Assembly: GCA_946630315.1 (NCBI GenBank)
Contig: CAMOYT010000002.1
Span: 562 to 64,561 of the forward strand
DNA from: an uncultured Bacillota bacterium
Lineage (GTDB): Bacteria; Bacillota_I; Bacilli_A; RF39; UBA660
Reading direction: 5' to 3'
DNA length: 64,000 bases
Translations under genes and position numbers: made by a program
The notes under the pieces: generated by a model
The model's input: only the letters and a program-made list of their open reading frames with translations
Database searches by the model: none
What the model was told of the DNA's origin: nothing
Part shown: piece after piece, positions 40,272-56,323 of the stretch
How the letters are laid out: each line of letters starts with the position of its first letter
Position numbering within the stretch: the stretch's first letter is position 1

Positions 40272-40279
40272 GGTAGATT

Positions 40280-40708
40280 ATGAAGCTATTAATAAAAGAA
40301 AAAAACAAATATCGTATTAACAAATTATTAGAATGGCTAATGTATATGATAGGGTACACACTAGTATTCATCTTTGTTACTAGTTTCTTTAAAAGTATTC
40401 ATATTGATAGTAATCATCTAATTATTTGGTCATTTATTATTGTAATAGTAACTTATATTTTAAATAAGACTATTAAACCAGTACTAATTACATTAACAAT
40501 ACCAATAACTGGATTAACACTAGGTTTATTCTATCCATTTATTAATGTATTTATTCTAAAACTAGTAGATTGGCTACTTGGAAAACACTTTGAATTAGAT
40601 AGTATCTTTATCTTATTCTTTGTAGCAATCCTACTTTCAGTAGCAAACTTTATCATAGAAAAAATAATAGATAAGATAATTGGAAAGGTAAAAAGGCACT
40701 ATGCATAG
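40280..40708 (+). CDS. YvlD/DUF360 (phage holin family 4-2-like) membrane protein
   Basis: 142 aa with four TM helices; contains IKPVLITLTIPITGLTLGLFYPFINVFILKLVDW. Confidence 0.55.
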   Translation: MKLLIKEKNKYRINKLLEWLMYMIGYTLVFIFVTSFFKSIHIDSNHLIIWSFIIVIVTYILNKTIKPVLITLTIPITGLTLGLFYPFINVFILKLVDWLLGKHFELDSIFILFFVAILLSVANFIIEKIIDKIIGKVKRHYA

Positions 40709-41471
40709 TATTGCTTTTGACTTAGGATTTATAAAAATATATTGGTACTCAATCTTTATATTACTAGGAGTTCTATCAGGAGTATTAATAATATTAAGAG
40801 AAGCTAAAAAGAAAAAGTTAGATGAAGACTTTATAGTAAATACACTATTCTTTGGTATACTATTTGCTATTCTAGGAGCAAGATTATATTATGTAATATT
40901 TAATTATAGTTATTATCTAAATAATCCAAGTGAAATATTTGCTATATGGAATGGTGGTTTAGCAATTCATGGTGGCATAATACTAGGTCTAATAACAGTA
41001 ATATTTATGTCTAAAAAACATAAAGTAAATCTAATAGATTTATTAGATACCTTAGTAATAGGACTAATAATTGGTCAAGCAATAGGTCGTTGGGGAAATT
41101 TCTTCAATATGGAAGCCTATGGTTCAGTAGTAGGATTAGCTAATTTAAAAGCCATTGGAATACCACAATTCATAATAAATGGAATGTATATAGATGGAGC
41201 CTATCATCATCCAACATTTCTTTATGAATCAATATGGTGCCTAATTGGTTTTATATTATTACTTATTAATAAAAAAGAAATGAAAGAAGGACAATCACTA
41301 GGTTTTTATTTAACTTGGTATGGTATAGGAAGATTCCTAATAGAATCATTAAGAACAGATTCATTAATGTTTGGTAGTTTTAAAATAGCCCAAATAATAT
41401 CATTAATATTTATAATAGTAGGAATATATTTCTTATTTGTTTATAGAAAAACAGGAGGCAAAAATGAATAA
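40701..41471 (+). CDS. lgt: prolipoprotein diacylglyceryl transferase
   Basis: Motifs WNGGLAIHGGI, GRWGNFFN and HPTFLYES. Confidence 0.9.
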   Translation: MHSIAFDLGFIKIYWYSIFILLGVLSGVLIILREAKKKKLDEDFIVNTLFFGILFAILGARLYYVIFNYSYYLNNPSEIFAIWNGGLAIHGGIILGLITVIFMSKKHKVNLIDLLDTLVIGLIIGQAIGRWGNFFNMEAYGSVVGLANLKAIGIPQFIINGMYIDGAYHHPTFLYESIWCLIGFILLLINKKEMKEGQSLGFYLTWYGIGRFLIESLRTDSLMFGSFKIAQIISLIFIIVGIYFLFVYRKTGGKNE

Positions 41472-42414
41472 AAAAGTTGTAGTATTCGGTGGAGGTACAG
41501 GTATCTCCTATCTATTAAGAGGATTAAAAGATTTCCCAATTGATATAACAGCAGTAATAACAGTATCAGATAATGGACGTTCAACTGGTAGATTAAGACA
41601 AGAATTCCATACACCAGCAGTAGGAGATATTAGACAAGTAGTAACAAATCTATCATCAACAGATGCTGCTATTAAAAAGATGTTATCATATCGTTTTAAT
41701 ACATCAAGTGATCTTAATGGTCATGCATTAGGAAACTTAATTTTAACAGCTATGTTAGATATCACAGGTTCCCTAAAAGAATCAATCTCATCATTAAGTA
41801 AACTACTAGATGTAAGACATACAGTTTTACCAATCTCAGAAGATGCTAACTTAACATTAATGGGAGAAGATGTAAAAGGAAATATCATTGAAGGAGAAGA
41901 AGAAATAACAAAATCTCCAAATAAAATTAAAAGAATATTTTATAAGGATGAACCAAATGTCTTACCAGAAGTAATAAAAGCAATAAATGAAGCAGATTTA
42001 TTAATACTAAGTATGGGAAGTCTATATACATCAATTCTTCCAAATGTTATTTGCAAAGAAGTACAGTTAGCAATCGGAGATAGTGATGCTCCAATAATGT
42101 ATGTATGTAATGCTGTATCACAACCTGGTGAAACAGATGGTTTCAAAGTATCAGATCACATTAAAATGTTAAATAACTATTTAGGAGAAAGAAATGTTGA
42201 TGTAGTAATTGCCTCACACACTAAAATACCTAAAAACATAGCTCATAAATATGAAACAGAAGAACAAAAAGACCCAATATTAATAGACTATGAGGAGTTA
42301 GAAAAATTAGGTGTAGAACTAATAGAAGATGACTTAATAGTAATAGAAGACAATATAATACGTCATAATAGTCTAAAAGTTAGTTCACTAATATTTTCTT
42401 ATTTAATTAAATAA
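41464..42414 (+). CDS. yvcK: YvcK/CofD-like gluconeogenesis factor
   Basis: N-terminus MNKKVVVFGGGTGISYLLRGLK. It lies directly upstream of whiA, as in other Bacillota. The start follows the SD aggagg. Confidence 0.85.
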   Translation: MNKKVVVFGGGTGISYLLRGLKDFPIDITAVITVSDNGRSTGRLRQEFHTPAVGDIRQVVTNLSSTDAAIKKMLSYRFNTSSDLNGHALGNLILTAMLDITGSLKESISSLSKLLDVRHTVLPISEDANLTLMGEDVKGNIIEGEEEITKSPNKIKRIFYKDEPNVLPEVIKAINEADLLILSMGSLYTSILPNVICKEVQLAIGDSDAPIMYVCNAVSQPGETDGFKVSDHIKMLNNYLGERNVDVVIASHTKIPKNIAHKYETEEQKDPILIDYEELEKLGVELIEDDLIVIEDNIIRHNSLKVSSLIFSYLIK

Positions 42415-43352
42415 TGTCTTTTACAACAACAATAAAAAAAGAAATAACCCAAATCGAATCAACAGAATCAGAAATGATTGCTGAACTATCCGGTTTTATA
42501 AGAAATAATAGTACAATAAGCAATGGGTCTCTAGCAACAACATCAGAGAAATTAAATGTTCTAGAACGTTTTCAATATTTTATAAAAGAACTATATCAAG
42601 TAGATTCTGAAATAATAGTAATAGATAATGTTAATTTTAGTAAAAATGATTTATATGAATTAAAAGTAGAAAAAGATGTAAACAAAATATTAAGAAACAT
42701 AGGTTTCTATGATGAAAATAATGAATACTTAGAAACAGCTCCAACATATATAGTAGGAGCAAATGAAGAAATAAGAGCATATCTAAGAGGAGTATTCTTA
42801 TGTAGTGGTAGTATTAATGATCCAAAAACTTCAAGATATCACTTAGAATTATTAATACCAACTCCAGCAGAAGCAGTATTTGTTCAACAACTACTTAATA
42901 TATTTGATTTAAATGCTAAAATTATAAATCGTGAAAAAGGATACATGATCTATGTAAAAGAAGCAGAAAAAATAAGTGACTTCTTAAAAATAATAAAAGC
43001 AAATAATGCTGTCTTATATTTTGAAGATGTTCGTATTTACCGTGATCAAAAAAATAAAACTAATAGACTAAATAATTGTGAACAAGCTAATATGGATAAA
43101 ATAATAGAGACAGCAACAGCTCAAATAGAACAAATAGAAATAATAGAAGAGACAAATAGTATAGATTTATTAGATGAAAGAACACAAGTAGCCTTGAAAT
43201 ATAGAAAAAAATATCCAGAAGCTTCTCTAAAAGAGTTAGCTGAAATAATAACAATAGAGACTGGAAAAAGCCTATCTAAGTCAGGACTAAATCATCGTTT
43301 AAGAAAAATAAAAGAATTAGCAGAACGTTTAGAAAAAAACAAGAATAGCTAA
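42414..43352 (+). CDS. whiA: DNA-binding protein WhiA
   Basis: LAGLIDADG-like core (YLRGVFLCSGSINDP) and a C-terminal HTH (LSKSGLNHRLRKI). Confidence 0.9.
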   Translation: MSFTTTIKKEITQIESTESEMIAELSGFIRNNSTISNGSLATTSEKLNVLERFQYFIKELYQVDSEIIVIDNVNFSKNDLYELKVEKDVNKILRNIGFYDENNEYLETAPTYIVGANEEIRAYLRGVFLCSGSINDPKTSRYHLELLIPTPAEAVFVQQLLNIFDLNAKIINREKGYMIYVKEAEKISDFLKIIKANNAVLYFEDVRIYRDQKNKTNRLNNCEQANMDKIIETATAQIEQIEIIEETNSIDLLDERTQVALKYRKKYPEASLKELAEIITIETGKSLSKSGLNHRLRKIKELAERLEKNKNS

Positions 43353-43449
43353 TTCTTTTTTTGTCTATTAGCTGTAAACAACACTTTTTATAATCAAATA
43401 TACAAATTATCTATGATATAATGACTACATAGAATAAGAGGTGGTAATT

Positions 43450-45102
43450 ATGATAGAAACAATTGAAGTTACTATTAATAATAAAATACATACTTATAAC
43501 AAAGATACAACATTACTAGAAATATCAAAAGATTTTCAACATGAATTTAAATACCCAATTATATTAGCACGTGTTGGTAATAGATTAAAGGAATTATCAA
43601 ATCAAATCCAAGAATCTTGTACAATAGAATTCTTAGATTTAACCTCTAGAGAAGGAAATGCTGCTCATATTAATGGTTTAGTTTATGTAATGTTATATGC
43701 TGTAAAAAGATTATATGGAAAAAAAGCAAACATAGTTGTAGAACATTCCTTAGATAAAGGTATTTATATAGAATCATCATTTAAACTAAATGGTGAAAAA
43801 GTTGATGAAATAAAAAATATGATGAAGACTATCATCAAAGAAGATAAGCCTATTATTAAGATGAATATTGATAGAATGGAAGCTAAAAAATACTTCGAAA
43901 GTATTGGAGATTTAGCAAAAGCAGGAGTAATGCTATATAACACAAACAACTATGTAACATTATATAGATTAGGTAATTTATATAATTACTTCTACAACTT
44001 AATGCCTACATCTACTAGTCTAGTAAAAGACTTTGACTTAACATATATTAAAGATAATGGTTTCATATTAAGATTCCCAACAGAGTATATGCCAGATAAA
44101 ATAAAAAAATATGAACATCATCCCCACATGTTTGAAGTATTTAAACAATATCGTGATTGGGCTAAATTAATAAATGTAAAAAACTCAGTAGATTTAAATA
44201 GAATAGTTTCCACAGGTAAATACAATGACCTAATCAAAATAGACGATACCGTTCAAAACAGTAGATTACTAACAGTAGCTAAAGAAATAAACGATCGTAA
44301 AAAAGATATAAAAATAGTTTTATTAGCAGGACCATCATCATCAGGTAAAACAACAACATCTAAAAAGATATGTATGTACTTACATACATTTGGTCTAAAT
44401 CCTAAAGTAATAGGAATGGACGATTACTTTGTAGATAGAGTAGATACACCTAAAAATCCAGATGGTTCATATGACTATGAATGTCTAGAAGCTCTAGATT
44501 TAAAACTATTTGATAAACAAATGGCTGCTTTATTAAAAGGCGATGAAGTATTAACTCCTACATATAACTTTAGTTTAGGTAAAAAAGAATATAATAATTC
44601 TATGAAATTAGAAGAAGATGATATTTTAGTAATTGAAGGAATACATGCTCTTGATAATAAAATACTAACTAATATTCCAAGAGAAAAGAAATATAAAATC
44701 TACATATCTGCCTTAACAGAAGTAAATGTAGATGACCATAATCGTATTTCAACAACAGATAATAGATTACTAAGAAGAATAATAAGAGATAATCGTACAA
44801 GAGGACATAAAGTAGATGATACACTAGCTGCATGGGCAAGTGTAAGAAAAGGAGAAGAATTATACATTTTCCCATATCAAGATGAAAGCGATGTAACAAT
44901 AAATTCAGCTGCTATATACGAAATAGGTGTACTAAAAACATATGTAGAGCCATTATTATACTCAGTAGAAAATGACTCACCATACTATGAAGAAGCCAAA
45001 AGATTAATTGACTTCTTAAGAGTATTTTTACCAATACCATCTGATGCTGTACCAGAAGACTCAGTATTAAGAGAATTTATTGGAGGAAGCTACTTCGAAT
45101 AA
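43450..45102 (+). CDS. uridine kinase/phosphoribulokinase-family nucleoside kinase with long N-terminal extension (TGS/ThrRS-like)
   Basis: The P-loop LLAGPSSSGKTTTSKK lies in the C-terminal half, and VIEGIHAL is present. The start at ATG 43450 follows the SD agaggtgg. Confidence 0.65.
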   Translation: MIETIEVTINNKIHTYNKDTTLLEISKDFQHEFKYPIILARVGNRLKELSNQIQESCTIEFLDLTSREGNAAHINGLVYVMLYAVKRLYGKKANIVVEHSLDKGIYIESSFKLNGEKVDEIKNMMKTIIKEDKPIIKMNIDRMEAKKYFESIGDLAKAGVMLYNTNNYVTLYRLGNLYNYFYNLMPTSTSLVKDFDLTYIKDNGFILRFPTEYMPDKIKKYEHHPHMFEVFKQYRDWAKLINVKNSVDLNRIVSTGKYNDLIKIDDTVQNSRLLTVAKEINDRKKDIKIVLLAGPSSSGKTTTSKKICMYLHTFGLNPKVIGMDDYFVDRVDTPKNPDGSYDYECLEALDLKLFDKQMAALLKGDEVLTPTYNFSLGKKEYNNSMKLEEDDILVIEGIHALDNKILTNIPREKKYKIYISALTEVNVDDHNRISTTDNRLLRRIIRDNRTRGHKVDDTLAAWASVRKGEELYIFPYQDESDVTINSAAIYEIGVLKTYVEPLLYSVENDSPYYEEAKRLIDFLRVFLPIPSDAVPEDSVLREFIGGSYFE

Positions 45103-45103
45103 C

Positions 45104-45134
45104 AATATCCACAAATTTTGTGGATATTTTTTTA
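45104..45134 (+). terminator. rho-independent terminator
   Basis: aatatccacaaa (45104-45115) pairs with tttgtggatatt (45117-45128), followed by a T-run. Confidence 0.7.
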
Positions 45135-45180
45135 TGATGCAATAATACTTGTACATAAACGTAATAACTTAAAAAAAACA

Positions 45181-45209
45181 TTGAAGTCTTAAAAAATACC
45201 ATTTATAAT
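45181..45209 (+). promoter_or_regulatory. sigma-A-type promoter of gap
   Basis: TTGAAG (45181-45186), 17-nt spacer, TATAAT (45204-45209). Confidence 0.55.
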
Positions 45210-45230
45210 TAAAGAGTAAGGAGGATTTTA

Positions 45231-46235
45231 ATGATTAAAGTAGCAATTAATGGATTCGGAAGAATCGGAAGATTATGTTTTAGATTAATGGAGGAGAACC
45301 CAGAGTTTGAGGTAGTAGCAATCAATGACTTAACTGATGCTGAACAATTAGCATACTTACTAAAATACGATACTAATCATAGAAACTATCGTATTGATGA
45401 AATTCATGCTGATGGAGACTATATTGTAGTAGGAGATAGAAGAGTAAGAGTATATGCTGAAAAAGATCCTGCAATGTTACCATGGGGTGAATTAGATGTA
45501 GATGTAGTATTTGAATCAACTGGATTATTTACATCTGAAGAAAAAGCTATGGCTCATATCAATGCTGGAGCAAAGAAAGTAATTATTTCAGCACCTGCAA
45601 AAGGTAATGTAAAGACAATCGTTTACAATGTAAACCATGAAACATTAACAGGAGATGAAAAAATTATTAGTGCAGCATCTTGTACTACTAACTGTCTAGC
45701 ACCTGTTGTAGATGTTTTAGATAAAGAGTTTGGAATTGTAAAAGGATATATGACAACTGTACATGCATATACAAATGATCAAGCATCACTTGACATTGCA
45801 CATAAAAAAGGACACTTAGCACGTCGTGGTAGAGCTTGTGCTGCTAATATCGTACCAGCTTCAACTGGAGCAGCTTCAGCAATCGGACTTGTTTGTCCAA
45901 ATCTAGCAGGAAAATTAGATGGAACTGCAATGCGTGTACCAGTACCAACTGGCTCAGTTGTAGATTTAACTCTAGAACTTGGAAGAAATACAACTGCAGA
46001 AGAAATCAATGAAGTATTACGTGCTCATACTAATGAAACAATGGAATTTACAATGGATCCAATTGTATCTTCAGATGTAATTGGAAGACGTTGTGGTTCA
46101 CTAGTTGATGGATTATCTACTAATGTTTTAGAAGTAGAAGGAAAACAATTAGTAAAAGTAGTATCTTGGTATGATAATGAAATGTCATATACTGCTCAAA
46201 TGGTTAGAACTGCAAAGTACTTAATGAACAAATAA
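45231..46235 (+). CDS. gap: glyceraldehyde-3-phosphate dehydrogenase
   Basis: Motifs INGFGRIGR, SCTTNCLAP and WYDNE. Confidence 0.95.
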   Translation: MIKVAINGFGRIGRLCFRLMEENPEFEVVAINDLTDAEQLAYLLKYDTNHRNYRIDEIHADGDYIVVGDRRVRVYAEKDPAMLPWGELDVDVVFESTGLFTSEEKAMAHINAGAKKVIISAPAKGNVKTIVYNVNHETLTGDEKIISAASCTTNCLAPVVDVLDKEFGIVKGYMTTVHAYTNDQASLDIAHKKGHLARRGRACAANIVPASTGAASAIGLVCPNLAGKLDGTAMRVPVPTGSVVDLTLELGRNTTAEEINEVLRAHTNETMEFTMDPIVSSDVIGRRCGSLVDGLSTNVLEVEGKQLVKVVSWYDNEMSYTAQMVRTAKYLMNK

Positions 46236-46260
46236 AAGAAGCACTGCTTCTTTTTTTTTA
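46236..46260 (+). terminator. rho-independent terminator after gap
   Basis: agaagc (46237-46242) pairs with gcttct (46246-46251), then T9. Confidence 0.7.
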
Positions 46261-46310
46261 TGTAAAAATAATATATAATAAAATAAAATAGAATAATAAG
46301 GAGAGTAATT

Positions 46311-47840
46311 ATGGATAATAAAAACGTACCAGAAGAATCAAAAGTAGAAGAAGAAAAACAAGAGAAGAAAAGATCCTTTCTATGGAATTATATAGGAAAT
46401 ATATTTGCGTTTTTTTGTATTACAACATTTATTGCAGTTGTAGCAGCAATACACTATCCAAATCCAGCAACAATCTTTATAGCTTCAGTAATAGCAATTA
46501 TTTATATAATAACAATAATTCTATTTCAAAATAAGCCACAACCAGAAGAAATAGCAGAACCACCAAAAAAATTAGGAGCTATACTAGTTACTATTTGCAT
46601 AATAGTTGCTAATATTGTTTTATTTATTTATTTCTCATCAGCAAATATTCCTGAAATATCTATAATACCAGTAATATTTGGATTTCTATACATAATAATT
46701 ATATGGACAGGAGATACACTATTAAAATCTTCTACAGTTAATACAACAATTACTACTTCAGCAGCATCAACAGCACAGACACAACAACCAGCACAACCAC
46801 AATTTCCACAAGCAGCTCAAGGAACACCAGTAGTAGTAGCTGATTATCCAACTTTTGTTAGAACAAAAAGCGAAGATGTTGCATTAAGAAATTATATAAA
46901 CATGACATTTACAAAAAATAAGCTAAATGCAAATGCAACATTGCCATATACTGAAAAAAGAAAAAACATTTTAACAATAATTTATTGTTTGTTAGTTTAT
47001 ATAGTAACAACACTATTTATGGCTTATCATACTCATCCATTTATCGTCATAATATTCTTAATAGTCCTAACTATCTTCTATATAAAAATGTCACGTGGCA
47101 AAGTAATAGAAGACATCTTAATCAAAGAAATCAAAGCACGTCCAGATGAGAAAATGGAAAATATTATAGTTAGTAAAATGCAAGAAGCAACAGAAAATAA
47201 TAATATTTTCTTTAGAGTGATGACTTCTCTTGTAACAGTAGCACTAATATTACTAGTATTCTTTGAACCACATATGATATTTGAAAATACACCTGATGGA
47301 TACTACTTAAGATATTACACATTAGGTATATTTAATAATCCAAGTGATGTAAAAGTACCTGCTCAATATAAGAATAAAGATGTAGTAGGAATAAGAGGTA
47401 GTGTTTTTGAAAACATGATTTTTATAAAAAATGTTCAACTACCTGAAACAATTAAAGAAATAAGAGGAGATGCTTTTAAAAATTGTATCAATCTAGAATC
47501 AATTAACTTACCATTACAATTAAAAGAAATACATGGTTCTACTTTTGAAAACTGTTCTAAATTAAAAGCTATTAACATTCCAGAAGGAGTAAAAAGAATA
47601 GGCGGATCAGCCTTTAGAAATGATAGCAATCTATCTGAAGTAGTAATTCCAAAATCAGTAACGGAAATAGGAAGCTCTGCTTTTAGAGCAACTAATATCC
47701 AAAAAGTATGTATAAGTAAAAATGCTTATGTAAATGAAAGAGCATTTAAAGAAACATATCCAACTATTGTATATTATGAAAATAACTGTCAAGAAGACAA
47801 TGTCAGGGGGGAAGACAATGAATGGGGAGAATACGAATAA
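46311..47840 (+). CDS. polytopic membrane protein with C-terminal BspA-type leucine-rich repeats
   Basis: Several TM helices and a Thr/Gln/Pro-rich linker. The C-terminal repeats are IRGDAFKNCINLESINLP, IHGSTFENCSKLKAINIP, IGGSAFRNDSNLSEVVIP and IGSSAF. Confidence 0.6.
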   Translation: MDNKNVPEESKVEEEKQEKKRSFLWNYIGNIFAFFCITTFIAVVAAIHYPNPATIFIASVIAIIYIITIILFQNKPQPEEIAEPPKKLGAILVTICIIVANIVLFIYFSSANIPEISIIPVIFGFLYIIIIWTGDTLLKSSTVNTTITTSAASTAQTQQPAQPQFPQAAQGTPVVVADYPTFVRTKSEDVALRNYINMTFTKNKLNANATLPYTEKRKNILTIIYCLLVYIVTTLFMAYHTHPFIVIIFLIVLTIFYIKMSRGKVIEDILIKEIKARPDEKMENIIVSKMQEATENNNIFFRVMTSLVTVALILLVFFEPHMIFENTPDGYYLRYYTLGIFNNPSDVKVPAQYKNKDVVGIRGSVFENMIFIKNVQLPETIKEIRGDAFKNCINLESINLPLQLKEIHGSTFENCSKLKAINIPEGVKRIGGSAFRNDSNLSEVVIPKSVTEIGSSAFRATNIQKVCISKNAYVNERAFKETYPTIVYYENNCQEDNVRGEDNEWGEYE

Positions 47841-49593
47841 TTATAAGTTTATTCATTTATTATATGTACCTACAATGGCTTGCAATATGGCCTGCAAATA
47901 CTGCTATCTAGAAGATAATACTAAAGATGAATGGACTGATAAAGATCCTCTAGATACATTAAAATATGCTGTAACTAAGTTTTATGATAATAAAGTAATA
48001 CCATTTAATATATCTCTACATGGTGGAGAAGTAACAACATTATCCAAAAAAGACTTTAGAAACATTATAGAATATATATCAAATTATTATAAAAAAAATA
48101 AAGTATTAATAGAATCAAATGGTTTTCCCCTAGGAAATCCACATATAAAAACAAATCTATATAATATAGAAAAACATCTAGATACCATAAAAGAATTTAA
48201 TGTATCAATTAGTGGAAGTATAGACCTACCACTAAATAAGCATGAAGAGTATCGAGTAACTAAGTCAAATAAAAAGACTTTAGACAAGATACTAGAAAAT
48301 GTAAAATTATTAGAAAGTATACCAAATAAAAAGAAGGTATCAGCAACTATTTTTAAAGAGCACTTTAATCTAGATCAAATAGTAAAAGATATAAAATATT
48401 TAGACAAAAATACTTGTCTAGATATGAATGACTTTAATTTTATGATAGGTTTTGATTATAATTCTAATAATTTACTACATCACATAGATGAAGAAGAGCA
48501 ATTAGAACTATTTAATCGTATGCATAAAGAATTTGCAAATACTAATCTAGATTATGGACTAAATAATGCTTGGTTTGCTGAATTTGGTCCTAATTATTGT
48601 ACTAATTGTGATAATTGTGGAGAAAAATTCTTCTTATTAGAAAAAAATGGAGATATTTACTCATGTGTAAGAGGTCAAAAAAATAAAAACTTCTATTATG
48701 GAAATATTTATACTAATACAGTAGAAGAAATATTACAAACAGCCTACAATAAAATATTAACTGCTCATAATAAACTACCATTTAATGAAGAATGTAGTAA
48801 ATGTAAATATCTATATTTATGTAAAACAGGATGTCCATTTGTAAAAAATACATATAAAACAAATAAATCATATACTTGTAAACTACAACAAGCTCTATAT
48901 GAAAAATTAAATCTTTCTAAAGATGAGTATAATGAAGAAACAGTTTACCAATATGTATCAGAAATGCATCCGAGTGAACAATATAAGTATTTTCCAATTA
49001 TTCAAAATGAGAAAAAACATATTTTAGATCTAATAGAAGAAGATGAAAAATTAAAATACATCTATGATTCCAATAGTTATATTTTAAAAGTAAATGATGA
49101 TGAGTATAAATTAGAATCACAAATTACTAAAAGAATAAGAAAAATAATCTGTCTAGATAATAATTCCAAAATAGAATTATATATCAAGAAAAATATCTTA
49201 GATGAAGAAACACCATATCCTAATAATAATGCATTATATATAATGCTACTAAGTGGAAATACTATTACATATGGAGATGAAAATAGAACTAAACAAGCAC
49301 ATATAATGACTCATGAAGTATATAAAGGTGTCCTAGAACAAAATATATCAGATAAAAAAGATTATTTTAAATTAGATATAACTAACATTTTAAAAGATTA
49401 TTTCAAATACTTATCTAAAGATAATCCAAACAACCTCTTTGTAACAACCCAAGCTTTAAGAGATTATCATTATACAAAACAAAAAAATAATGCATATTAT
49501 CATATTGATACTATCAATTTACCATTTCAAAATATAGAATTTTATCTATTAGAAGGAGATTACAATGATAAAGAAGAATCCAGAAACATATAA
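47818..49593 (+). CDS. radical SAM protein with SPASM domain and about 200-aa unknown C-terminal extension
   Basis: CNMACKYC (C-x3-C-x2-C, nt 47881-47904), HGGEVT, and the SPASM motif C-x2-C-x5-C-x3-C in CSKCKYLYLCKTGC (nt 48793-48834). The start at ATG 47818 follows a G-rich SD; the track start at 47734 lies inside the upstream gene. Confidence 0.8.
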   Translation: MNGENTNNYKFIHLLYVPTMACNMACKYCYLEDNTKDEWTDKDPLDTLKYAVTKFYDNKVIPFNISLHGGEVTTLSKKDFRNIIEYISNYYKKNKVLIESNGFPLGNPHIKTNLYNIEKHLDTIKEFNVSISGSIDLPLNKHEEYRVTKSNKKTLDKILENVKLLESIPNKKKVSATIFKEHFNLDQIVKDIKYLDKNTCLDMNDFNFMIGFDYNSNNLLHHIDEEEQLELFNRMHKEFANTNLDYGLNNAWFAEFGPNYCTNCDNCGEKFFLLEKNGDIYSCVRGQKNKNFYYGNIYTNTVEEILQTAYNKILTAHNKLPFNEECSKCKYLYLCKTGCPFVKNTYKTNKSYTCKLQQALYEKLNLSKDEYNEETVYQYVSEMHPSEQYKYFPIIQNEKKHILDLIEEDEKLKYIYDSNSYILKVNDDEYKLESQITKRIRKIICLDNNSKIELYIKKNILDEETPYPNNNALYIMLLSGNTITYGDENRTKQAHIMTHEVYKGVLEQNISDKKDYFKLDITNILKDYFKYLSKDNPNNLFVTTQALRDYHYTKQKNNAYYHIDTINLPFQNIEFYLLEGDYNDKEESRNI

Positions 49594-49930
49594 CGAATTA
49601 AGAGCTGTCCATAATCTAATGCAACTAAATAGTCATTATAAAGTATCACAAGAATTTTTAGATGAAGCTTATGATTTTATAATGCAAGATCCAAATAATA
49701 CAATAGATTGTGGCTCAACAAGTATTACATTTAAAAAACCAAATGGAGAAGTAGTAAAAACATTTCAAACAAACCATAATTCCACAATTATAGATGGCTT
49801 AATAGTATCATCAATTGCTCTAACCATAATTCCACATTATAATCCATCATCTTCTGGTGGAGGTGGAGGCTTTTCATCAAATAATAACAATAATAACAAC
49901 AATAATAATAACAATAATAATAACCACTAG
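49565..49930 (+). CDS. hypothetical 121-aa protein with Gly5 and Asn15 C-terminal tail
   Basis: SD aaggag upstream. It overlaps the rSAM gene by 29 nt. The tail reads SSSGGGGGFSS, then 15 Asn, then His. Confidence 0.5.
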   Translation: MIKKNPETYNELRAVHNLMQLNSHYKVSQEFLDEAYDFIMQDPNNTIDCGSTSITFKKPNGEVVKTFQTNHNSTIIDGLIVSSIALTIIPHYNPSSSGGGGGFSSNNNNNNNNNNNNNNNH

Positions 49931-49938
49931 GAGAAAAT

Positions 49939-50955
49939 ATGATAACAGAATCAAAACAAGCTAAAAGACTAAACAGTCTAGGTATTAACATAAAAACATT
50001 TTTCTATGATAATGGAAAAAAGAAGCAAAGAAATACTGATAATTCACTAAATCAAGATATAAAACAAGGTATTATTATTGAAAAAGATTATTATAAACAT
50101 GGAGATTTATTAAGAAAAGAAAAAAGCTTTGATTCACGTATAAGCTATACATATGAGTTTTCTGGAGAAGATAAGTATACTTGTAAAAACTGTGGTATGG
50201 AAGGAGAAGTAAAAGATTTTACTGATGGTTGCCCATACTGTCATACAAATTATAATATTGATTATGATAATAAAGAACTAAGTAATAAAAAATATTATGA
50301 TCTAATAATAAAAGACAAGTCTTATATAATTAAAACATTTATTTTAGACATAGTATTTTCACTACTATTAGTTGGAATATATATCTATAATACTAGTAGA
50401 ACATTTTATACATTTGACATAATAAAAATAATAGTAATAGGCTTCTTCATAAGCTTAGTATTGTTCTTTATCTTTTATTATTTAGATGCCTTAATTATTC
50501 TACCTTGGTTACGTAAAAAGAAAGAAAAATCTAATCAAAAACAAGTAGAATTTTGGAATAGAATGCAAAAATATTTTATAAGTAAAACAAAATTCTATAA
50601 TAATTTAAACTATGAATTAAGAAATTTATTCTATAGTGATAAATATAAAGATGTAGTAGATTATGATATACTTGATTACAACTCATTAAAAGAAAAAGAA
50701 GAAGATGACAAACTATTTGTAACAATAAATATAGATATAAGAATAATAAGACTAGTAAACAATAAAATAGAATCTAAAATAGAAACAAAAGAATTCTTAC
50801 TAAAAAGAGTAGAATCAAAACTAGAATTAACAAAAAAAGTAAATTTTATTCCTTGCCCTAATTGTGGAGCAAGCATTGATGCTACTACTGAAGTATGTGA
50901 GTATTGTGGAACACCACATAACTATTTACAAGAATGGTATTTGCAAGAATTATAA
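49939..50955 (+). CDS. membrane protein with two zinc-ribbon motifs flanking two TM helices
   Basis: CKNCGMEGEVKDFTDGCPYCH, two TM helices, and CPNCGASIDATTEVCEYCG. SD aggag upstream. Confidence 0.55.
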   Translation: MITESKQAKRLNSLGINIKTFFYDNGKKKQRNTDNSLNQDIKQGIIIEKDYYKHGDLLRKEKSFDSRISYTYEFSGEDKYTCKNCGMEGEVKDFTDGCPYCHTNYNIDYDNKELSNKKYYDLIIKDKSYIIKTFILDIVFSLLLVGIYIYNTSRTFYTFDIIKIIVIGFFISLVLFFIFYYLDALIILPWLRKKKEKSNQKQVEFWNRMQKYFISKTKFYNNLNYELRNLFYSDKYKDVVDYDILDYNSLKEKEEDDKLFVTINIDIRIIRLVNNKIESKIETKEFLLKRVESKLELTKKVNFIPCPNCGASIDATTEVCEYCGTPHNYLQEWYLQEL

Positions 50956-50958
50956 TTA

Positions 50959-50983
50959 AAAACATCGTAGGATGTTTTTTTTA
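50959..50983 (+). terminator. rho-independent terminator of the rSAM cassette
   Basis: aacatc (50961-50966), loop gtag, gatgtt (50971-50976), then T8. Confidence 0.7.
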
Positions 50984-51024
50984 TGTCAAAAATTTGATAT
51001 AATTCTAGTAGATAGGAGAGTTAT

Positions 51025-52197
51025 ATGAAAACATTATTAGATTTAGATGTAAATAATAAAAAAGTAATTATAAGATGTGATTTTAACGTACCATTAAAAG
51101 ATGGGAAAATAACAGATGATACAAGAATAGTAGCAGCCCTACCTACTATAAAATATTGTCTAGATAATAATGCCAAAGTAATATTATTATCTCATTTAGG
51201 AAGAGTAAAAGAAGAAGCAGACCTAGCTAAAAATGACTTATCTCCAGTTGCTGAAAGATTAAGTGAATTATTAGAACAAGATATATTATTCTCAACAGAG
51301 ACAAGAGGACAAGAGTTAGAAGATGCAGTTCAAATGTTACAACCTAAAGACGTTTTATTAATTCAAAATACAAGATATGAAGACTTAGATGGTAACAAAG
51401 AAAGCTCAAATGATGAAGAATTAGGAGCATATTGGGCATCACTTGGAGATGTATTTATAAATGATGCGTTTGGAACTATTCATAGAGCCCATGCATCAAA
51501 CTGTGGAATAGCTTCCCACTTGCCAAGTGCTTTTGGATTCTTAATTGAAAAAGAATTAACTGCTTTATCAGAATTAGATAATCCAGAACATCCATTTGTT
51601 GTAATATTAGGAGGAGCTAAAGTAAGTGATAAAATAGGTGTAATTGAAAACCTAGTAACAAAAGCAGATAAAATACTAATAGGAGGTGGAATGGCCTTTA
51701 CTTTCTTAAAAGCAAAAGGATTAGAAATAGGTAAATCCCTATTAGATGAAGAAAACATAGAATTCTGTAAAAAAGTATTAACAGATTATCCAGATAAAAT
51801 AGTATTACCAATCGATGTAGCAGTAACTAATGAATATACCGATGATGAAGAATATAGAACAAAATCTATAGAAGAAATAGCAACTGATGAAATGGGTCTA
51901 GATATTGGACCTAAAACAGAAGAATTATTTGAAAAAGAAACTGCTTCTGCTAAAATAGTTGTATGGAATGGTCCACTAGGAGTATATGAATTCTCTAAAT
52001 ATAAAAAACATACAGATAAATTATTAGCATATTTAGTAAATAATAATATCAAGACTATTTTAGGTGGTGGCGATATCGTAGCAGCAGCAGCAAATGCTGG
52101 ATATAAAGATAAAGTATATCATGCCTCAACAGGTGGAGGAGCAACACTAGAATATATGGAGGGTAAAAAACTTCCAGGAATTGAAGCAATTAAATAA
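51025..52197 (+). CDS. pgk: phosphoglycerate kinase
   Basis: RCDFNVPL, SHLGR, and a full-length two-domain layout. An extended -10 (tgatataat) lies upstream. Confidence 0.95.
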   Translation: MKTLLDLDVNNKKVIIRCDFNVPLKDGKITDDTRIVAALPTIKYCLDNNAKVILLSHLGRVKEEADLAKNDLSPVAERLSELLEQDILFSTETRGQELEDAVQMLQPKDVLLIQNTRYEDLDGNKESSNDEELGAYWASLGDVFINDAFGTIHRAHASNCGIASHLPSAFGFLIEKELTALSELDNPEHPFVVILGGAKVSDKIGVIENLVTKADKILIGGGMAFTFLKAKGLEIGKSLLDEENIEFCKKVLTDYPDKIVLPIDVAVTNEYTDDEEYRTKSIEEIATDEMGLDIGPKTEELFEKETASAKIVVWNGPLGVYEFSKYKKHTDKLLAYLVNNNIKTILGGGDIVAAAANAGYKDKVYHASTGGGATLEYMEGKKLPGIEAIK

Positions 52198-52233
52198 AAA
52201 TAATAAGTAAAAGCTTATTAAGAGGTGGTAAAG

Positions 52234-52722
52234 TTGAATAAAAATTATTTTGTTGTCAATCCTTATAGTAATGAAGATTTAGCACAAATAATTGATTTTG
52301 AAAAACATAATGATAGTGTATTTATCTCTAAGGCAATAGAAGAGACTAAAACTAAAATGAGTGAAGAAGAGTATAAAAACTTGAAAAAAACAAGTAATAC
52401 TATTACACTAGATTATTGTCTAAGAGAAGGAAAAGAAGTAAAAGACCTTTGTCATATAGTAGGAGAAAGAGATATTAAAACTGCTACTGTCTTTTTAGCA
52501 CCTATAAAAGGTAAAAGAAAAAAATTAATAGAACAAGTAACAGACTATATCTTTAATGTATTAGGAATGGAACAATTATTTGTTCAAATAAAACCACAAG
52601 ATCTAAATATAATAAAAACATTAGAAGAATTAAATTTTATCTCATTAGGAGATGAAAATGGAAATATAATCTATTTAAAAGATAAGGAAGAAGAAAAAGA
52701 ACTAGGAAGAAGAATAAGTTAA
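52234..52722 (+). CDS. hypothetical protein
   Basis: The ORF is tightly packed between pgk and the next gene. The start is uncertain: the GTG at 52225 lies inside the SD, while the TTG at 52234 has better spacing. Confidence 0.4.
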   Translation: MNKNYFVVNPYSNEDLAQIIDFEKHNDSVFISKAIEETKTKMSEEEYKNLKKTSNTITLDYCLREGKEVKDLCHIVGERDIKTATVFLAPIKGKRKKLIEQVTDYIFNVLGMEQLFVQIKPQDLNIIKTLEELNFISLGDENGNIIYLKDKEEEKELGRRIS

Positions 52723-53726
52723 TGAAGAATCTAAAGAAAAACACAATTATATTATTACTAATAACTATAATCGTCTTATACTTTGTTTTAAAAGATGATA
52801 TGAATAATATTATTACAACATTAGGTACTATGAACTATTTCTTTGTTGTAATAGCTATTCTCTTCTTCTTTTTTTATATTGTATTAAGAGCTTATGTTAA
52901 CTATTTAGTAGTTGATGAAAAAGAAAAATATACTTTTCTAGAAGCAATCAAACATAACATAATAGTTTTATTCTTTAATGGAATTACACCATTCTCAACA
53001 GGTGGCCAACCAATGGAAATATATATGTTAACAGAACATGATATTAAATTAAGTAAAGCAACAAACGTTACAATCCAAAACTTTATTTTCTATCAAGTGG
53101 CCTTAGTACTATATGGACTTTTAGCAGTATCATACAATGCTATCTTCCATATCTTTCCTAAAGTACCATTCTTAAGACACTTAGTATTAGTAGGATTCTT
53201 AATCAATACCTTAGTAATAGTAATATTAGCTATAATAACATTCTCAGATAAATTAACTAAAAAAATGATTCACTTGGTATTAAAAATAGCCAAAAAACTA
53301 GGTATATTAAAAAAACATAAAGACTTAAGAGAAAAACTAGATGTAAAAGTAGATGAATTTCAAACAAGTTCAAGAAAACTATTAAAGGACAAAAAATTAT
53401 TCTTTAAAGGAGTATTCTTAAACTTCTTAGCCTTAACATGTTTTTATATAATTCCATTATTCTTAGTATTAGGACTACATAGTAATAGTATAAATATGAT
53501 GGATTCAATTACATCTAGTGCTTATACATTAATAGTTGGAAGTTTTGTACCAATACCAGGTGCTAGTGGAGGAATAGAATATTCATTCACTCAATTTTTT
53601 GGTAACTTCATATCATCTGATATGATAAACACTGTATTATTAATATGGCGATTCATAACATACTATTTAGGTATGATATTAGGAGCAATATTATTTAATT
53701 TCCATAATAAGAAGGTGACAAAATGA
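52722..53726 (+). CDS. flippase-like / lysylphosphatidylglycerol-synthase-TM-region (UPF0104) family membrane protein
   Basis: About 8 TM helices, including FNGITPFSTGGQPMEIYML. It is coupled to a GT4 gene, as is usual for this family. Confidence 0.6.
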   Translation: MKNLKKNTIILLLITIIVLYFVLKDDMNNIITTLGTMNYFFVVIAILFFFFYIVLRAYVNYLVVDEKEKYTFLEAIKHNIIVLFFNGITPFSTGGQPMEIYMLTEHDIKLSKATNVTIQNFIFYQVALVLYGLLAVSYNAIFHIFPKVPFLRHLVLVGFLINTLVIVILAIITFSDKLTKKMIHLVLKIAKKLGILKKHKDLREKLDVKVDEFQTSSRKLLKDKKLFFKGVFLNFLALTCFYIIPLFLVLGLHSNSINMMDSITSSAYTLIVGSFVPIPGASGGIEYSFTQFFGNFISSDMINTVLLIWRFITYYLGMILGAILFNFHNKKVTK

Positions 53727-54952
53727 GAATAGGAATTTTTACGGAAACATATACCCCATACATTAGTGGATTAGTAACAAGCGAAGTAATGCTAAAACAT
53801 GCCCTAGAAAAAATGGGTCATGAAGTATATGTAGTAACAGCAAACTTACGTAGTTTTAAATACGAGTATGATGAAAAAGAAAGAGTATTTAGAATACCTG
53901 GAATTCCAACTGGAATATATGATTCCAGATTAACAAGTACTTATCCAATAAGAGCAATTAATAAAATAAAAAGCTGGCATCTAGATGTAATACATTCCCA
54001 AACAGAATTCTCAATTGGAACATTTGCAAGAATTTTTGCTAAACAATTTAATATTCCATTAGTCCATACATATCACACTATGTATGAAGACTATGTTCAC
54101 TATATAACAAAAGGTTATTTTAAAAAATCAAGCAAAAAACTAGTAGAATACTTAACTAAATTCTATTGTGATACAACTGCAACAGAATTAATAGTACCTA
54201 CTAATAAGACATATAAACTATTTAAAGAAAAATATCATTATGAAAAAGCAATAAATATTATTCCAACTGGAATAGAAGTAGAAAGATTCTATAAAGAAAA
54301 TGTAGACCCCAAAGAAATAGATAATTTAAGAAAAACACTTAATATATCTAAAAAAGATTTCGTTATCTTATTTGTTGGACGTTTAGCAGCAGAAAAAAAC
54401 ATAGAATTCTTATTAGAATCACAAAAAGAATTAATTAAAAAGCATAATAATATAAAATTAGTTATTGTTGGAGATGGACCAGATAAAGAAAAATATGAAG
54501 AATTATCTAAAAAATTAGATATAGATAAAAATACTATTTTTACTGGAAAAGCAGCTTGGGGAGATATGCCTTATTACTACAATATTGCCGATGCTTTTGC
54601 AACCGCTTCTAAATCAGAGACACAAGGACTTACCCTAATAGAAGCTATGGCAGCCGATGTCTCAGTAGTATGTATGCGTGATGAAGCCTTCTTAAGTATG
54701 GTAACAGAAGACCTAAATAGTTTGATATTTGAAACTCAAGAAGAGTATCAAGAAAAAATACTTTACTTATACAATAATCCAAAAGAACATAAGAAAATGA
54801 ACCATCAAGCTCGTATTGCCGCAGAACAATACTCTGCCACTATCTATGGTACAAAAGTATTAGATGTATATAAGAGAGCTATTAAAGAGAAAAAAGAAGA
54901 GAACAGATTTGGTATTTTTTCACAAATAATTAAGAAATTAAAAGGAGAGTAA
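53723..54952 (+). CDS. GT4 family glycosyltransferase, likely diacylglycerol glycolipid synthase
   Basis: N-terminus MRIGIFTETYTPYISGL, then GRLAAEKN, and the E-x7-E motif ETQGLTLIE. ATGA overlap with the upstream gene. Confidence 0.75.
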   Translation: MRIGIFTETYTPYISGLVTSEVMLKHALEKMGHEVYVVTANLRSFKYEYDEKERVFRIPGIPTGIYDSRLTSTYPIRAINKIKSWHLDVIHSQTEFSIGTFARIFAKQFNIPLVHTYHTMYEDYVHYITKGYFKKSSKKLVEYLTKFYCDTTATELIVPTNKTYKLFKEKYHYEKAINIIPTGIEVERFYKENVDPKEIDNLRKTLNISKKDFVILFVGRLAAEKNIEFLLESQKELIKKHNNIKLVIVGDGPDKEKYEELSKKLDIDKNTIFTGKAAWGDMPYYYNIADAFATASKSETQGLTLIEAMAADVSVVCMRDEAFLSMVTEDLNSLIFETQEEYQEKILYLYNNPKEHKKMNHQARIAAEQYSATIYGTKVLDVYKRAIKEKKEENRFGIFSQIIKKLKGE

Positions 54953-54953
54953 T

Positions 54954-55655
54954 ATGATAATTGCCTTAAATAATAAAAGTCATTTAGATAAAGAAGAATT
55001 TGAAAAATATAATGAAGAATTAGAGACTATTAACACTAGACATACTTTAATACTATGTCCAAGTACTATTAATATTCCTCTAGCAACTCATAAAAACTAT
55101 TATCTAGGTGCTCAAAATATTTCTAAATTTAAAGAAGGAGCTCATACAGGAGAAGTAACCGCAACACAAGCTTATACATATGATTGTAAATATACAATTA
55201 TTGGTCATAGTGAAAGAAGAGAAGAACAACATGAATCAAATGAAGATACTAACGAAAAAATAAAAAGAAGTTTAGATGCTAACTTAACACCAATACTATG
55301 TATTGGAGAAACAAAAGAAGAAAGAGAAGAAAATCGTTATAAAGAAGTATTATCAAAAGAGCTAACAATCGCAACAAGAGATTTAACAGAAACAGACAAA
55401 GAAAAAGTAATAATAGCTTATGAACCAATATGGTCTATAGGAACTGGTATAATACCTAATAATAATCAAATAGATGAAGTATTCTCTTTTATAAAAGAAT
55501 TTCTTCCAAATAATAAAATACTATATGGAGGAAGTGCTAATGAAGAAAATATAGACGAATTGAATAACTGTAAATATATTGATGGATATCTTTTAGGTGG
55601 CTTAAGTTTAAAATTAGAAAATCTACAAGTATTTATAGATAAAATTAAAGACTAG
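54954..55655 (+). CDS. tpiA: triosephosphate isomerase
   Basis: Motifs IIGHSERR and AYEPIWSIGTG. At 233 aa it is rather short and divergent. Confidence 0.85.
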   Translation: MIIALNNKSHLDKEEFEKYNEELETINTRHTLILCPSTINIPLATHKNYYLGAQNISKFKEGAHTGEVTATQAYTYDCKYTIIGHSERREEQHESNEDTNEKIKRSLDANLTPILCIGETKEEREENRYKEVLSKELTIATRDLTETDKEKVIIAYEPIWSIGTGIIPNNNQIDEVFSFIKEFLPNNKILYGGSANEENIDELNNCKYIDGYLLGGLSLKLENLQVFIDKIKD

Positions 55656-55671
55656 CTCCTAGTCTTTTTTC
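55649..55671 (+). terminator. rho-independent terminator overlapping the tpiA stop
   Basis: agactag (55649-55655), loop ctc, ctagtct (55659-55665), then a T-run. Confidence 0.6.
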
Positions 55672-55672
55672 T

Positions 55673-56323
55673 ATGACAAAGATAAGATTATTAACAAATC
55701 AAAGCCAAACCTTAAAAGAACTATTAAATAAGATAAATGTTAATGAACACATCAGCTTAGAAATAGAATTAGAAAATAATGAAACACTATTACTAAATTT
55801 AGAAATAAGTCCATATGAAAAAATAAATATTATAAATACTTTATTAAGCAAAAATATAATAAGTAGTGCCATACATATAGATCATAAAGAAAAATTAAAA
55901 AACTCATATACATTAAACAAACTAAATATAAATAGACAAATAAAAATATATAAAGATCAATTTAGAAGAGAAGTACTTTTTGAGTTACTAGATATATTAC
56001 ATAGATTAGGTATAAAAACACATCATCTAGGTTACACTTATATAAAAGAAGCTATATACATTGTCTACTACAATAAAACAATTATTAATAATATGACTGA
56101 AGTATATAAAAAAATAAGTATAAAATATAATACTTCAATATCAAGTGTAGAAAGTAATATAAGAAGAGCAATAGAAGAAGGCTTTAAAAATGCCTCTCCT
56201 GATGACATAAAACAAATATTTGGCTATAGCTTAGATTATCAAAATGTTTGTCCTACTAACTCAGTCTTTATATTAACTATCTCCGATATCTTAAAAACTA
56301 AATTTAATAGATATAATAATTAG
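55673..56323 (+). CDS. Spo0A C-terminal-domain-like DNA-binding protein without recognisable receiver domain
   Basis: HRLGIKTHHLGYTYIKEAIYIV...YKKISIKYNTSISSVESNIRRAIEEGF fits the Spo0A_C pattern. The N-terminal 95 aa lack the acidic pocket. No SD is present, and the ATG lies 2 nt after the terminator T-run. Confidence 0.55.
   Translation: MTKIRLLTNQSQTLKELLNKINVNEHISLEIELENNETLLLNLEISPYEKINIINTLLSKNIISSAIHIDHKEKLKNSYTLNKLNINRQIKIYKDQFRREVLFELLDILHRLGIKTHHLGYTYIKEAIYIVYYNKTIINNMTEVYKKISIKYNTSISSVESNIRRAIEEGFKNASPDDIKQIFGYSLDYQNVCPTNSVFILTISDILKTKFNRYNN

Follow-up and report, generated by a model that had tools for sequence, protein, structure and literature searches.

The stretch of DNA considered here (the window) comprises 64,000 nucleotides of contig CAMOYT010000002.1 (assembly GCA_946630315.1) from an uncultured Bacillota bacterium and has a GC content of about 27%. 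Four open reading frames (ORFs) of its + strand, g1 to g4, occupy positions 46311–50955 between gap (45231–46235) and pgk (51025–52197), as a first-pass annotation made from the window alone had described. They encode a membrane protein with leucine-rich repeats (LRRs), a radical SAM/SPASM enzyme, a small soluble protein and a second membrane protein with zinc ribbons. g1 and g2 overlap by 23 nt and g2 and g3 by 29 nt, the start codons at 47818 and 49565 lying within the preceding gene as that annotation had it, while g3 and g4 are separated by 8 nt rather than the 9 it gave; translational coupling of the cassette genes is visible in the window. The two terminators that it placed at the borders of the cassette were also recovered, on the + strand. 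The intrinsic terminator of gap forms the upstream boundary (46234..46263; 46234–46254 plus a T run in a terminator scan, and visible in the sequence), and a terminator-like hairpin followed by a T run closes the cassette ahead of the pgk promoter region (50958..50982; fold of −9.6 kcal/mol, z = −4.0). We report here that the enzyme is linked, across phyla, with neighbouring proteins that end in a run of asparagines, a pairing which, being present in nearly every locus, suggests a new protein modification.

g2 (47818..49593, +) encodes a 591-residue protein matching Pfam Radical_SAM and SPASM and carrying a family-specific C-terminal domain. The ORF is open from 47734, and the ATG at 47818 was taken as its start because it sits behind a GGGGGGAAG ribosome-binding site and because homologues begin at the same place. 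The ligands of the radical SAM [4Fe-4S] cluster, C22-x3-C26-x2-C29 (47881..47904, +), are at least 90% conserved in A1, an alignment of enzyme homologues covering an identity range of 26–79%. The SPASM region (48598..48879, +) includes eight cysteines that are invariant or nearly invariant in the same alignment (C261, C267, C283, C326, C329, C335, C339 and C354), of which C326/C329/C335/C339 form the C-x2-C-x5-C-x3-C motif at 48793–48834. Length and both motifs are as first read from the sequence. The number and spacing of these cysteines resemble those of anSMEcpe (PDB 4K36–4K39), an anaerobic sulfatase-maturating enzyme (anSME), and this points to two fully Cys-ligated auxiliary clusters in g2.

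The extra C-terminal part that the first reading could not place amounts to about 220 residues. Within it, a β-strand-rich domain of about 190 residues (approximately residues 400–578; 49015..49551, +), modelled with AlphaFold2 (AF2), is conserved from gut Bacilli to phage and carries invariant polar residues, with the motifs YGDE-R-K--H (485–495) and TT--LR-YHY-KQ-NA[YF]YHI---NLPF (543–570) conserved in alignments A1 and A2. The AF2 models have a predicted local distance difference test score (pLDDT) of 87 for full-length g2 and 88 for residues 365–591 alone. Foldseek searches of the PDB and BFVD with the C-terminal domain model gave nothing significant (best E values of 9e-3 and 5e-3, TM-scores below 0.35). 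Structural matches of the full model cover the radical SAM/SPASM core only: anSMEcpe is the best (E = 6e-14, TM-score 0.69 on the target), followed by CteB, SuiB and ChlB. An exhaustive search of 1.84 billion cluster representatives returned about 10 full-length clusters at 50% identity that carry the C-terminal domain, and below these only generic SPASM enzymes of about 370 residues, which indicates that the enzyme family is small and distinct.

Comparison with NCBIfam, a check that the first-pass annotation had proposed, and with Pfam gave superfamily-level matches only. All curated equivalog cut-offs were missed by a wide margin and g2 joins no curated subfamily. The top matches are peptide or protein maturases, namely DynA (92.3 bits against a cut-off of 450), anSME (TIGR03942; 84.1 against 349.45) and PapB (72 against 340), with DarE (60.5 against 650) and NF010308 (50.9 against 484) further down. 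No RRE/PqqD domain was matched by Pfam or NCBIfam in g2 or g3, and the radical SAM motif of g2 is reached already at residue 22; an RRE-like fold in the N-terminal domain of g3 may nevertheless be conceivable.

Database relatives of the enzyme number 2128; the best 120 share 68–100% identity with it and have 576–602 residues. In a scan with one genome per GTDB species, 246 species had enzyme relatives and 80 loci were fetched. Carriers are uncultured gut or rumen metagenome-assembled genomes (MAGs) labelled "Bacilli bacterium" or "Tenericutes", together with Mycoplasma sp. CAG:877, Clostridium sp. CAG:524, Ca. Coprovivens and Ca. Faecimonas, a clade that we take to be an RF39-type lineage. With the window proteins as tblastn queries, the order g1, g2, g3, g4 was found in essentially all 80 loci, g1 being present in 79 and g4 in 73. 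Clustering of the ORFs places each of the four families in 72–80 loci (g3 in 74), and any other ORF family in at most 12. Most missing genes are accounted for by contig ends, L078 being an exception for g4. gap and pgk never occur in the flanks of these 80 enzyme-retrieved loci. Since the four genes stay together while their flanks change, the cassette travels as a unit; co-occurrence is strict and marks the four genes as a co-inherited set. One complete cassette (L088) lies on a contig of 45% GC. Between species the enzyme is 64–79% identical and g1, g3 and g4 only 27–56%, so that the enzyme is the slowly evolving member. Two contigs of a single MAG (JAGBES01; L068 and L069) each carry a cassette, with enzymes 67% identical to that of the window, a duplication or a mixing of strains in the bin.

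A divergent anSME, or another housekeeping SPASM enzyme acting on an unlinked target, is the reading that the closest solved structure would favour, and the agreement in cysteine number and spacing and the E value of 1e-23 with TIGR03942 point the same way. Like g2, the anSMEs (AtsB/ChuR) combine a radical SAM barrel with a full SPASM domain, nearly the same spacing of the eight auxiliary cysteines and no RRE, and they act on a protein rather than on the leader and core of a peptide. We nevertheless consider this explanation very improbable. The anSME score is far below its cut-off, no sulfatase occurs among the recurrent families of the 80 flanks or beside the window cassette, whose neighbours are gap and pgk, and no C/S-x-P/A-x-R motif is present. 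The C-terminal extension, with its novel fold, and the fixed Asn-tailed partner would be left unexplained, and homologues of the enzyme sit in phage tail modules.

The product of g3 (49565..49930, +) is a soluble protein of 121 residues and a candidate substrate of the enzyme. It has no transmembrane (TM) segment and no Pfam or NCBIfam match. An N-terminal helical part is followed by a β part (..IDG..IIPHY.P) and by the tail SSSGGGGGFSS-N15-H, in which 15 Asn codons, a mixture of AAT and AAC, precede His and the stop codon (49880..49924, +); in the g3 alignment (A3) the Asn columns show little or no variation. Although its length and its 29-nt overlap with g2 had been given correctly, the earlier view that the cassette lacks a recognisable precursor or substrate is not supported, in view of this conserved Ser/Gly and poly-Asn tail. 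The 74 homologues share the end ...IPHY.P.SS..GGSSS followed by the Asn run, and in 72 of them a run of 5–19 residues (mostly 12–15) stands at the extreme C-terminus, followed by Arg (46 cases), nothing (21) or His (4). The N-terminal part of about 100 residues is conserved and looks structured, the protein outside the tail is just 30–56% identical, and its single Cys is not conserved.

The two homologues that lack the tail are those of L047 and L068. On a further contig of the window's species (L188, approximately 5095–5190), where no g3 was called, a scaffold gap of N bases falls exactly within the Asn-codon run. Genes with such runs are probably under-called or truncated in MAGs, and this may explain the tail-less g3 of L047 and L068. 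Comparison with two contigs of this species revealed no sign of run-length polymorphism, one being identical and the other, L188, gapped inside the run. Searches with the g3 profile were uninformative: in the PDB only the artificial Asn10 linker of maltose-binding-protein fusion constructs was matched, and in Pfam only PRC2_EED_ins, which we regard as low-complexity noise. The widely used "N10" linker of pMAL (SSSNNNNNNNNNN, SSS-N10) resembles the natural tail, and the match is a search artefact.

Distant homologues of the enzyme, 28–50% identical, also adjoin proteins that end in Ser, Gly or Thr followed by an Asn run. On a contig of 58% GC (P0121) the enzyme is 50% identical and a neighbour of 120 residues ends ...GTWT-N10-G, while on a visibly GC-rich contig (P0125, or L081; about 68%, estimated rather than computed) it is 38% identical and a neighbour of 160 residues ends ...GQS-N18-G. 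The L088 enzyme is 61% identical and its partner ends N14-R. In all four GC backgrounds, including that of L081, AAT and AAC codons are interleaved within the runs, which points to selection acting at the peptide level rather than to a slippage-prone DNA repeat or a compositional artefact.

Asn-rich stretches are common in genomes as AT-rich as that of the window, and NNN ends are seen in a few unrelated genes as well. That the tails are simply a low-complexity or compositional coincidence is nonetheless scarcely credible, given that the enzyme has such tails next to it on contigs of 45% and 58% GC and on the GC-rich L081, and that nearly all g3 homologues keep them at the very C-terminus. As a background, the last 12 residues contain NNN in two of the 59 genes of the window, g3 included, and in about 16 of some 1040 non-g3 genes in the fetched flanks, or about 1.5%.

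The association extends to phages. g2 belongs, as the first-pass annotation could not see, to the uncharacterised phage family phrog_1802, which is found in tail-fibre modules (E = 1.4e-42; residues 16–585 aligned with profile positions 48–554 of 556). The homology is full length and includes the C-terminal domain. A "hypothetical protein" of Campylobacter phage CAM-P21 (WKW83149.1) is 34.5% identical to g2 over 95% of the query. Its gene follows baseplate genes, a tail fibre gene and a gene for a 211-residue protein, and precedes genes for a DUF1353-like protein, a 337-residue protein and the tail sheath. The fibre (368 residues, phrog_1162) ends ...SYAPSGSTNNNNY, and the 211-residue protein occupies the place of the DUF4376 chaperone described for the Campylobacter jejuni prophage CJIE1 (PMC11464564), whose phrog_1802 member is CJE0229. 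In Campylobacter the homologue, seen on at least 1000 contigs, bears no annotation beyond "radical SAM protein".

Among 19 IMG/VR loci, 18 are of the phage type, and in 17 of these an Asn-tailed fibre or small protein is encoded upstream of the enzyme. The partners end in S[GST][ST]NNNNY, S[ST/M]GNN[F/S], SCNNNNN, SSNNNNNNRG, HGNNNS or FSNNNNNNNLAGNV, other instances being ...SSGNNF, ...SMGNNF/S and ...SGPNNNF, and on a Mu-like contig the partner ends ...GGGGGGSGPNNNF. In Mu-like phages of Campylobacter the receptor-binding tail fibre is the partner, with ends such as ...STNNNNY and ...SGNNF. The phage runs are short (2–7 Asn), often ending in Tyr or Phe, and the fibres, of 263–1000 residues, have widely different sequences with this type of end in common. 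On two viral contigs of 94–170 kb, two consecutive Asn-tailed genes lie upstream of the enzyme gene (L100:4839-5561 and L101:2223-5561), encoding a 1000-residue protein (...YHGNNNS) and a 108-residue protein (...FSNNNNNNLAGNV); one enzyme may thus serve several tagged proteins.

In contrast to the cassette, the phrog_1802 version shows the order tail fibre, DUF4376 chaperone, radical SAM enzyme within a tail module and has no equivalents of g1 and g4. The window cassette, flanked by gap and pgk, is not part of such a module. It does show both features by which we define an Asn-tail-associated radical SAM family: the C-terminal motifs in the enzyme and a partner, g3, that ends ...FSS-N15-H.

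One feature is common to all these contexts, an enzyme with the special C-terminal domain accompanied by a polypeptide ending in Ser, Gly or Thr and then an Asn run. That the tail is the substrate is the most economical reading of this shared pairing, and the conserved tail on g3, with the same type of tail beside distant enzymes, makes g3 the obvious candidate. We therefore propose, with a probability of roughly 60%, that g2 is a protein-modifying radical SAM maturase acting on C-terminal Asn-run tags. This and the other functional statements made here rest on comparative genomics.

The core of the cassette would then be an enzyme–substrate pair, g2 and g3. The enzyme would combine an anSME-like TIM-barrel/SPASM core, with three [4Fe-4S] clusters and no RRE, with the β-rich C-terminal domain, which would stand in for the RRE as a substrate-docking module; since g2 lacks an RRE, it is this domain that probably docks the tail. 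The disordered tag of g3, Ser/Gly-rich and with its 15 Asn, would thread into the active site, where the 5′-deoxyadenosyl radical could take a hydrogen from Asn, or from Ser/Thr just before the run, and the auxiliary clusters could remove the second electron. The likely product is an oxidised or cross-linked C-terminus, lighter by 2 Da per event. Hydrogen abstraction from Asn has a precedent in DynA, which forms a bond at the Asn β-carbon. Conversion of L- to D-Asn by an epimerase was ranked low, no conserved Cys being apparent beyond the 11 cluster ligands as a hydrogen donor. Domain content, the strict co-occurrence of the four genes and the link of the enzyme with Asn-tailed neighbours across phyla are observed directly, whereas the substrate role of the tail, the part played by the C-terminal domain and the type of chemistry are what we infer from these comparisons.

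In phages, the modification might decorate the distal end of the fibre, where the receptor is bound, or make it more stable. In gut Bacilli the pair would be tied to g4, with its cytoplasmic zinc ribbons, and to g1, with its outward LRR domain, which probably keep the maturation step membrane-bound or else connect modified g3 with a role at the surface or in adhesion, although this is speculative. Taken as a whole, the picture is that of an unrecognised post-translational modification system, in which a radical SAM/SPASM enzyme with a novel docking domain alters poly-Asn tags by Asn or Ser/Thr chemistry new to radical SAM enzymes, phages using it to finish their fibre tips and gut Bacilli having fixed the pair to a membrane LRR/zinc-ribbon complex. 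To this fuller picture we would give slightly less than even odds.

The enzyme also resembles maturases of ribosomally synthesised peptides with post-translational modifications (RiPPs) such as DynA, PapB, CteB and SuiB, and a small ORF with a conserved C-terminus directly adjoins it, so that g3 might be seen as a precursor with a long leader, whose Ser/Gly/Asn tail is the core that is modified, cut and released as a bioactive peptide. The attack of DynA on the Asn β-carbon would suit such a scheme. DynA is the best NCBIfam match (NF041298; E = 3e-26, 343 of 356 profile positions) and, like g2, DynA and DarE (NF038005), the enzymes of dynobactin and darobactin, have no RRE. Their precursors, however, are short Trp-containing peptides accompanied by ABC exporters, neither of which is found in the cassette or the 80 loci, while the partners of the g2 family are proteins of 76–1000 residues with Asn runs. 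The cassette itself was rightly said to contain no sulfatase, protease or transporter, and the 80 loci have no protease, exporter or immunity gene.

The N-terminal part of g3, conserved and structured-looking as it is, does not suggest a leader, and in phages the tags are carried by structural tail fibres and not by leader peptides. Biosynthetic clusters are also typically patchy, whereas the cassette lies among core genes of reduced genomes and its enzyme is well conserved between species. Unlike the RRE-dependent sactisynthase, ranthipeptide and streptide systems, g3 has no Cys-rich (or Lys/Trp) core, leader protease or transporter. A classical RiPP is thus quite unlikely. MftC, PqqE and QhpD offer a parallel to the proposed maturase in one respect: these SPASM enzymes act on the C-terminal end of a linked polypeptide, and the product stays in a larger entity. 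They differ in their RRE protein or domain (MftB, PqqD) and in their targets (Val-Tyr, Glu-Tyr and Cys), and are homologous to g2 at the superfamily level only.

Another explanation is that the tail serves for docking or regulation, or as a linker, and is not itself modified, the enzyme acting instead on a small molecule, on a lipid or envelope component, or on g1 or g4. The membrane proteins always accompany the enzyme of gut Bacilli, the length of the Asn run varies as it might in a linker, and the C-terminal domain has no known peptide-binding fold. In the high-GC and phage versions, however, the Asn-tailed neighbour persists and g1 and g4 do not, and a linker would hardly be expected at an extreme C-terminus, or to be kept with mixed codons in the GC-rich L081. 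We consider this explanation unlikely.

Several observations weigh against modification of the Asn tail by g2. The run varies from 2 to 19 residues, an odd substrate for a site-specific cross-link, and the residue that follows it is R, H, Y, F, G, S or absent. One phage-type IMG/VR locus, L096, has no Asn-tailed neighbour. Alignment of g3 with the phage partner C-termini by hhalign gave a probability of 5.5%, with IDG placed on INGK, which is not significant, and homology of the partners is thus claimed for the tail only. H-fibres of CJIE1 produced in Pseudomonas or E. coli without the radical SAM gene still bind and kill via MOMP, and the fibre works in engineered pyocins that were likewise made without it (PMC11464564), so that the modification would not be essential for receptor binding in that assay. 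Finally, neither g1 nor g4 is found in the high-GC and phage versions, and the roles given to them above are guesses.

The nature of both membrane proteins is as first described. g1 (46311..47840, +; 509 residues) is polytopic, with seven hydrophobic segments taken as TM segments and a C-terminal domain of BspA-type LRRs (approximately residues 345–482; Pfam LRR_5, E = 1.1e-30). A Lys/Arg-rich loop before the last TM segment suggests, by the positive-inside rule, an outward-facing LRR domain. Conservation covers the LRR part together with the last TM segment and loop, and the N-terminal TM region is variable. g4 (49939..50955, +; 338 residues) has two four-Cys zinc ribbons around two TM segments (Pfam DZR and Zn_ribbon, together with the Cys and TM positions). 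A cytoplasmic N-terminal domain with the ribbon C82/C85/C98/C101 is followed by the TM region (129–179) and by a cytoplasmic C-terminal domain with the ribbon C306/C309/C320/C323. Its 791 homologues, all of about 336–347 residues, share this single architecture, and the named ones are all from "Bacilli bacterium"; neither these names nor cluster look-ups gave a functional clue.

In a variant cassette without g4 (L078:2684-6588), which has the enzyme and a g3 ending N15-R, the g1 homologue is longer (589 residues), and its N-terminal region contains an inserted Cys4 zinc ribbon (CAKCG...CTACG). A ribbon in g1 where g4 is missing points to a functional link between the two, and favours the view that they act jointly. 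At the high-GC locus, a protein of 168 residues with two TM segments (L081:753-1259) overlaps the start of the enzyme gene, and the P0123 contig is laid out in much the same way. Association with the membrane may thus be a general trait, even without g1 and g4.

The general class to which g2 belongs, that of radical SAM/SPASM maturases of proteins and peptides, was already known, and the phage family has a PHROG number. New, as far as the libraries and literature examined show, are the tag formed by the Asn run, the C-terminal domain of the enzyme, the connection of a cellular cassette with the tail-fibre modules of phages, and the arrangement of the four genes. Literature searches on poly-Asn with radical SAM, on radical SAM enzymes with tail fibres or receptor-binding proteins, and on CJE0229 returned no functional study. 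If the tail is the substrate, C-terminal Asn runs would constitute a new class of radical SAM/SPASM substrate, probably with new chemistry, and a phage receptor-binding protein would for the first time be proposed to carry a radical modification installed by an enzyme. Campylobacter, with CJIE1 and CAM-P21, provides a tractable system for this idea. The proposal would also offer a way into a four-gene module that is conserved in uncultured gut bacteria with reduced genomes, which are common in humans and ruminants. With about 10–20 residues, the tag is short and portable and could serve for site-specific protein modification.

An Rfam scan of 40000–56000 matched no RNA element, and PADLOC-DB v2, a set of anti-phage defence models, gave no match for g1, g2 or g3. 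For g4 the sole match was DruE (E = 1.4e-3), judged spurious. No phage gene family was recurrent in the 80 cellular loci.

The position of the cassette was addressed with a synteny set of 80 metagenomic loci retrieved with the window pgk (pgk identity 62–91%). The order whiA, udk-like gene, gap, pgk, 165-residue protein gene, MprF-like gene, glycosyltransferase gene is kept across these loci, and none of the 80 has a cassette gene in the gap–pgk interval. This interval measures about 70–130 bp in most relatives and 515 bp in the closest (L108, pgk 91% identical), and the cassette occupies this site only on contigs of the window's own species. Because relatives keep gap and pgk together without the cassette between them, its position here is a lineage-specific insertion, in agreement with the earlier description of the cassette as inserted.

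The gap–pgk spacer (46236–51024 in the window, compared with L108–L186) is a variable slot in this lineage. It measures about 1 kb in L110, L113, L129 and L147 and about 1.8 kb in L178, and in L181 it reaches 5 kb and encodes three membrane or surface proteins, including a repeat protein of 1064 residues. Downstream of pgk, the window (51025–54952) encodes the 165-residue protein, the MprF-like membrane protein and the glycosyltransferase in the order kept in relatives, in place of the tpiA, gpmI and eno that come next in many Firmicutes. Upstream of gap, an ORF of 553 residues (43441–45102) carries a uridine-kinase/PRK domain behind a long N-terminal extension; PF00485 was recorded for its counterpart in L187, and the ORF is kept beside whiA and gap in relatives.

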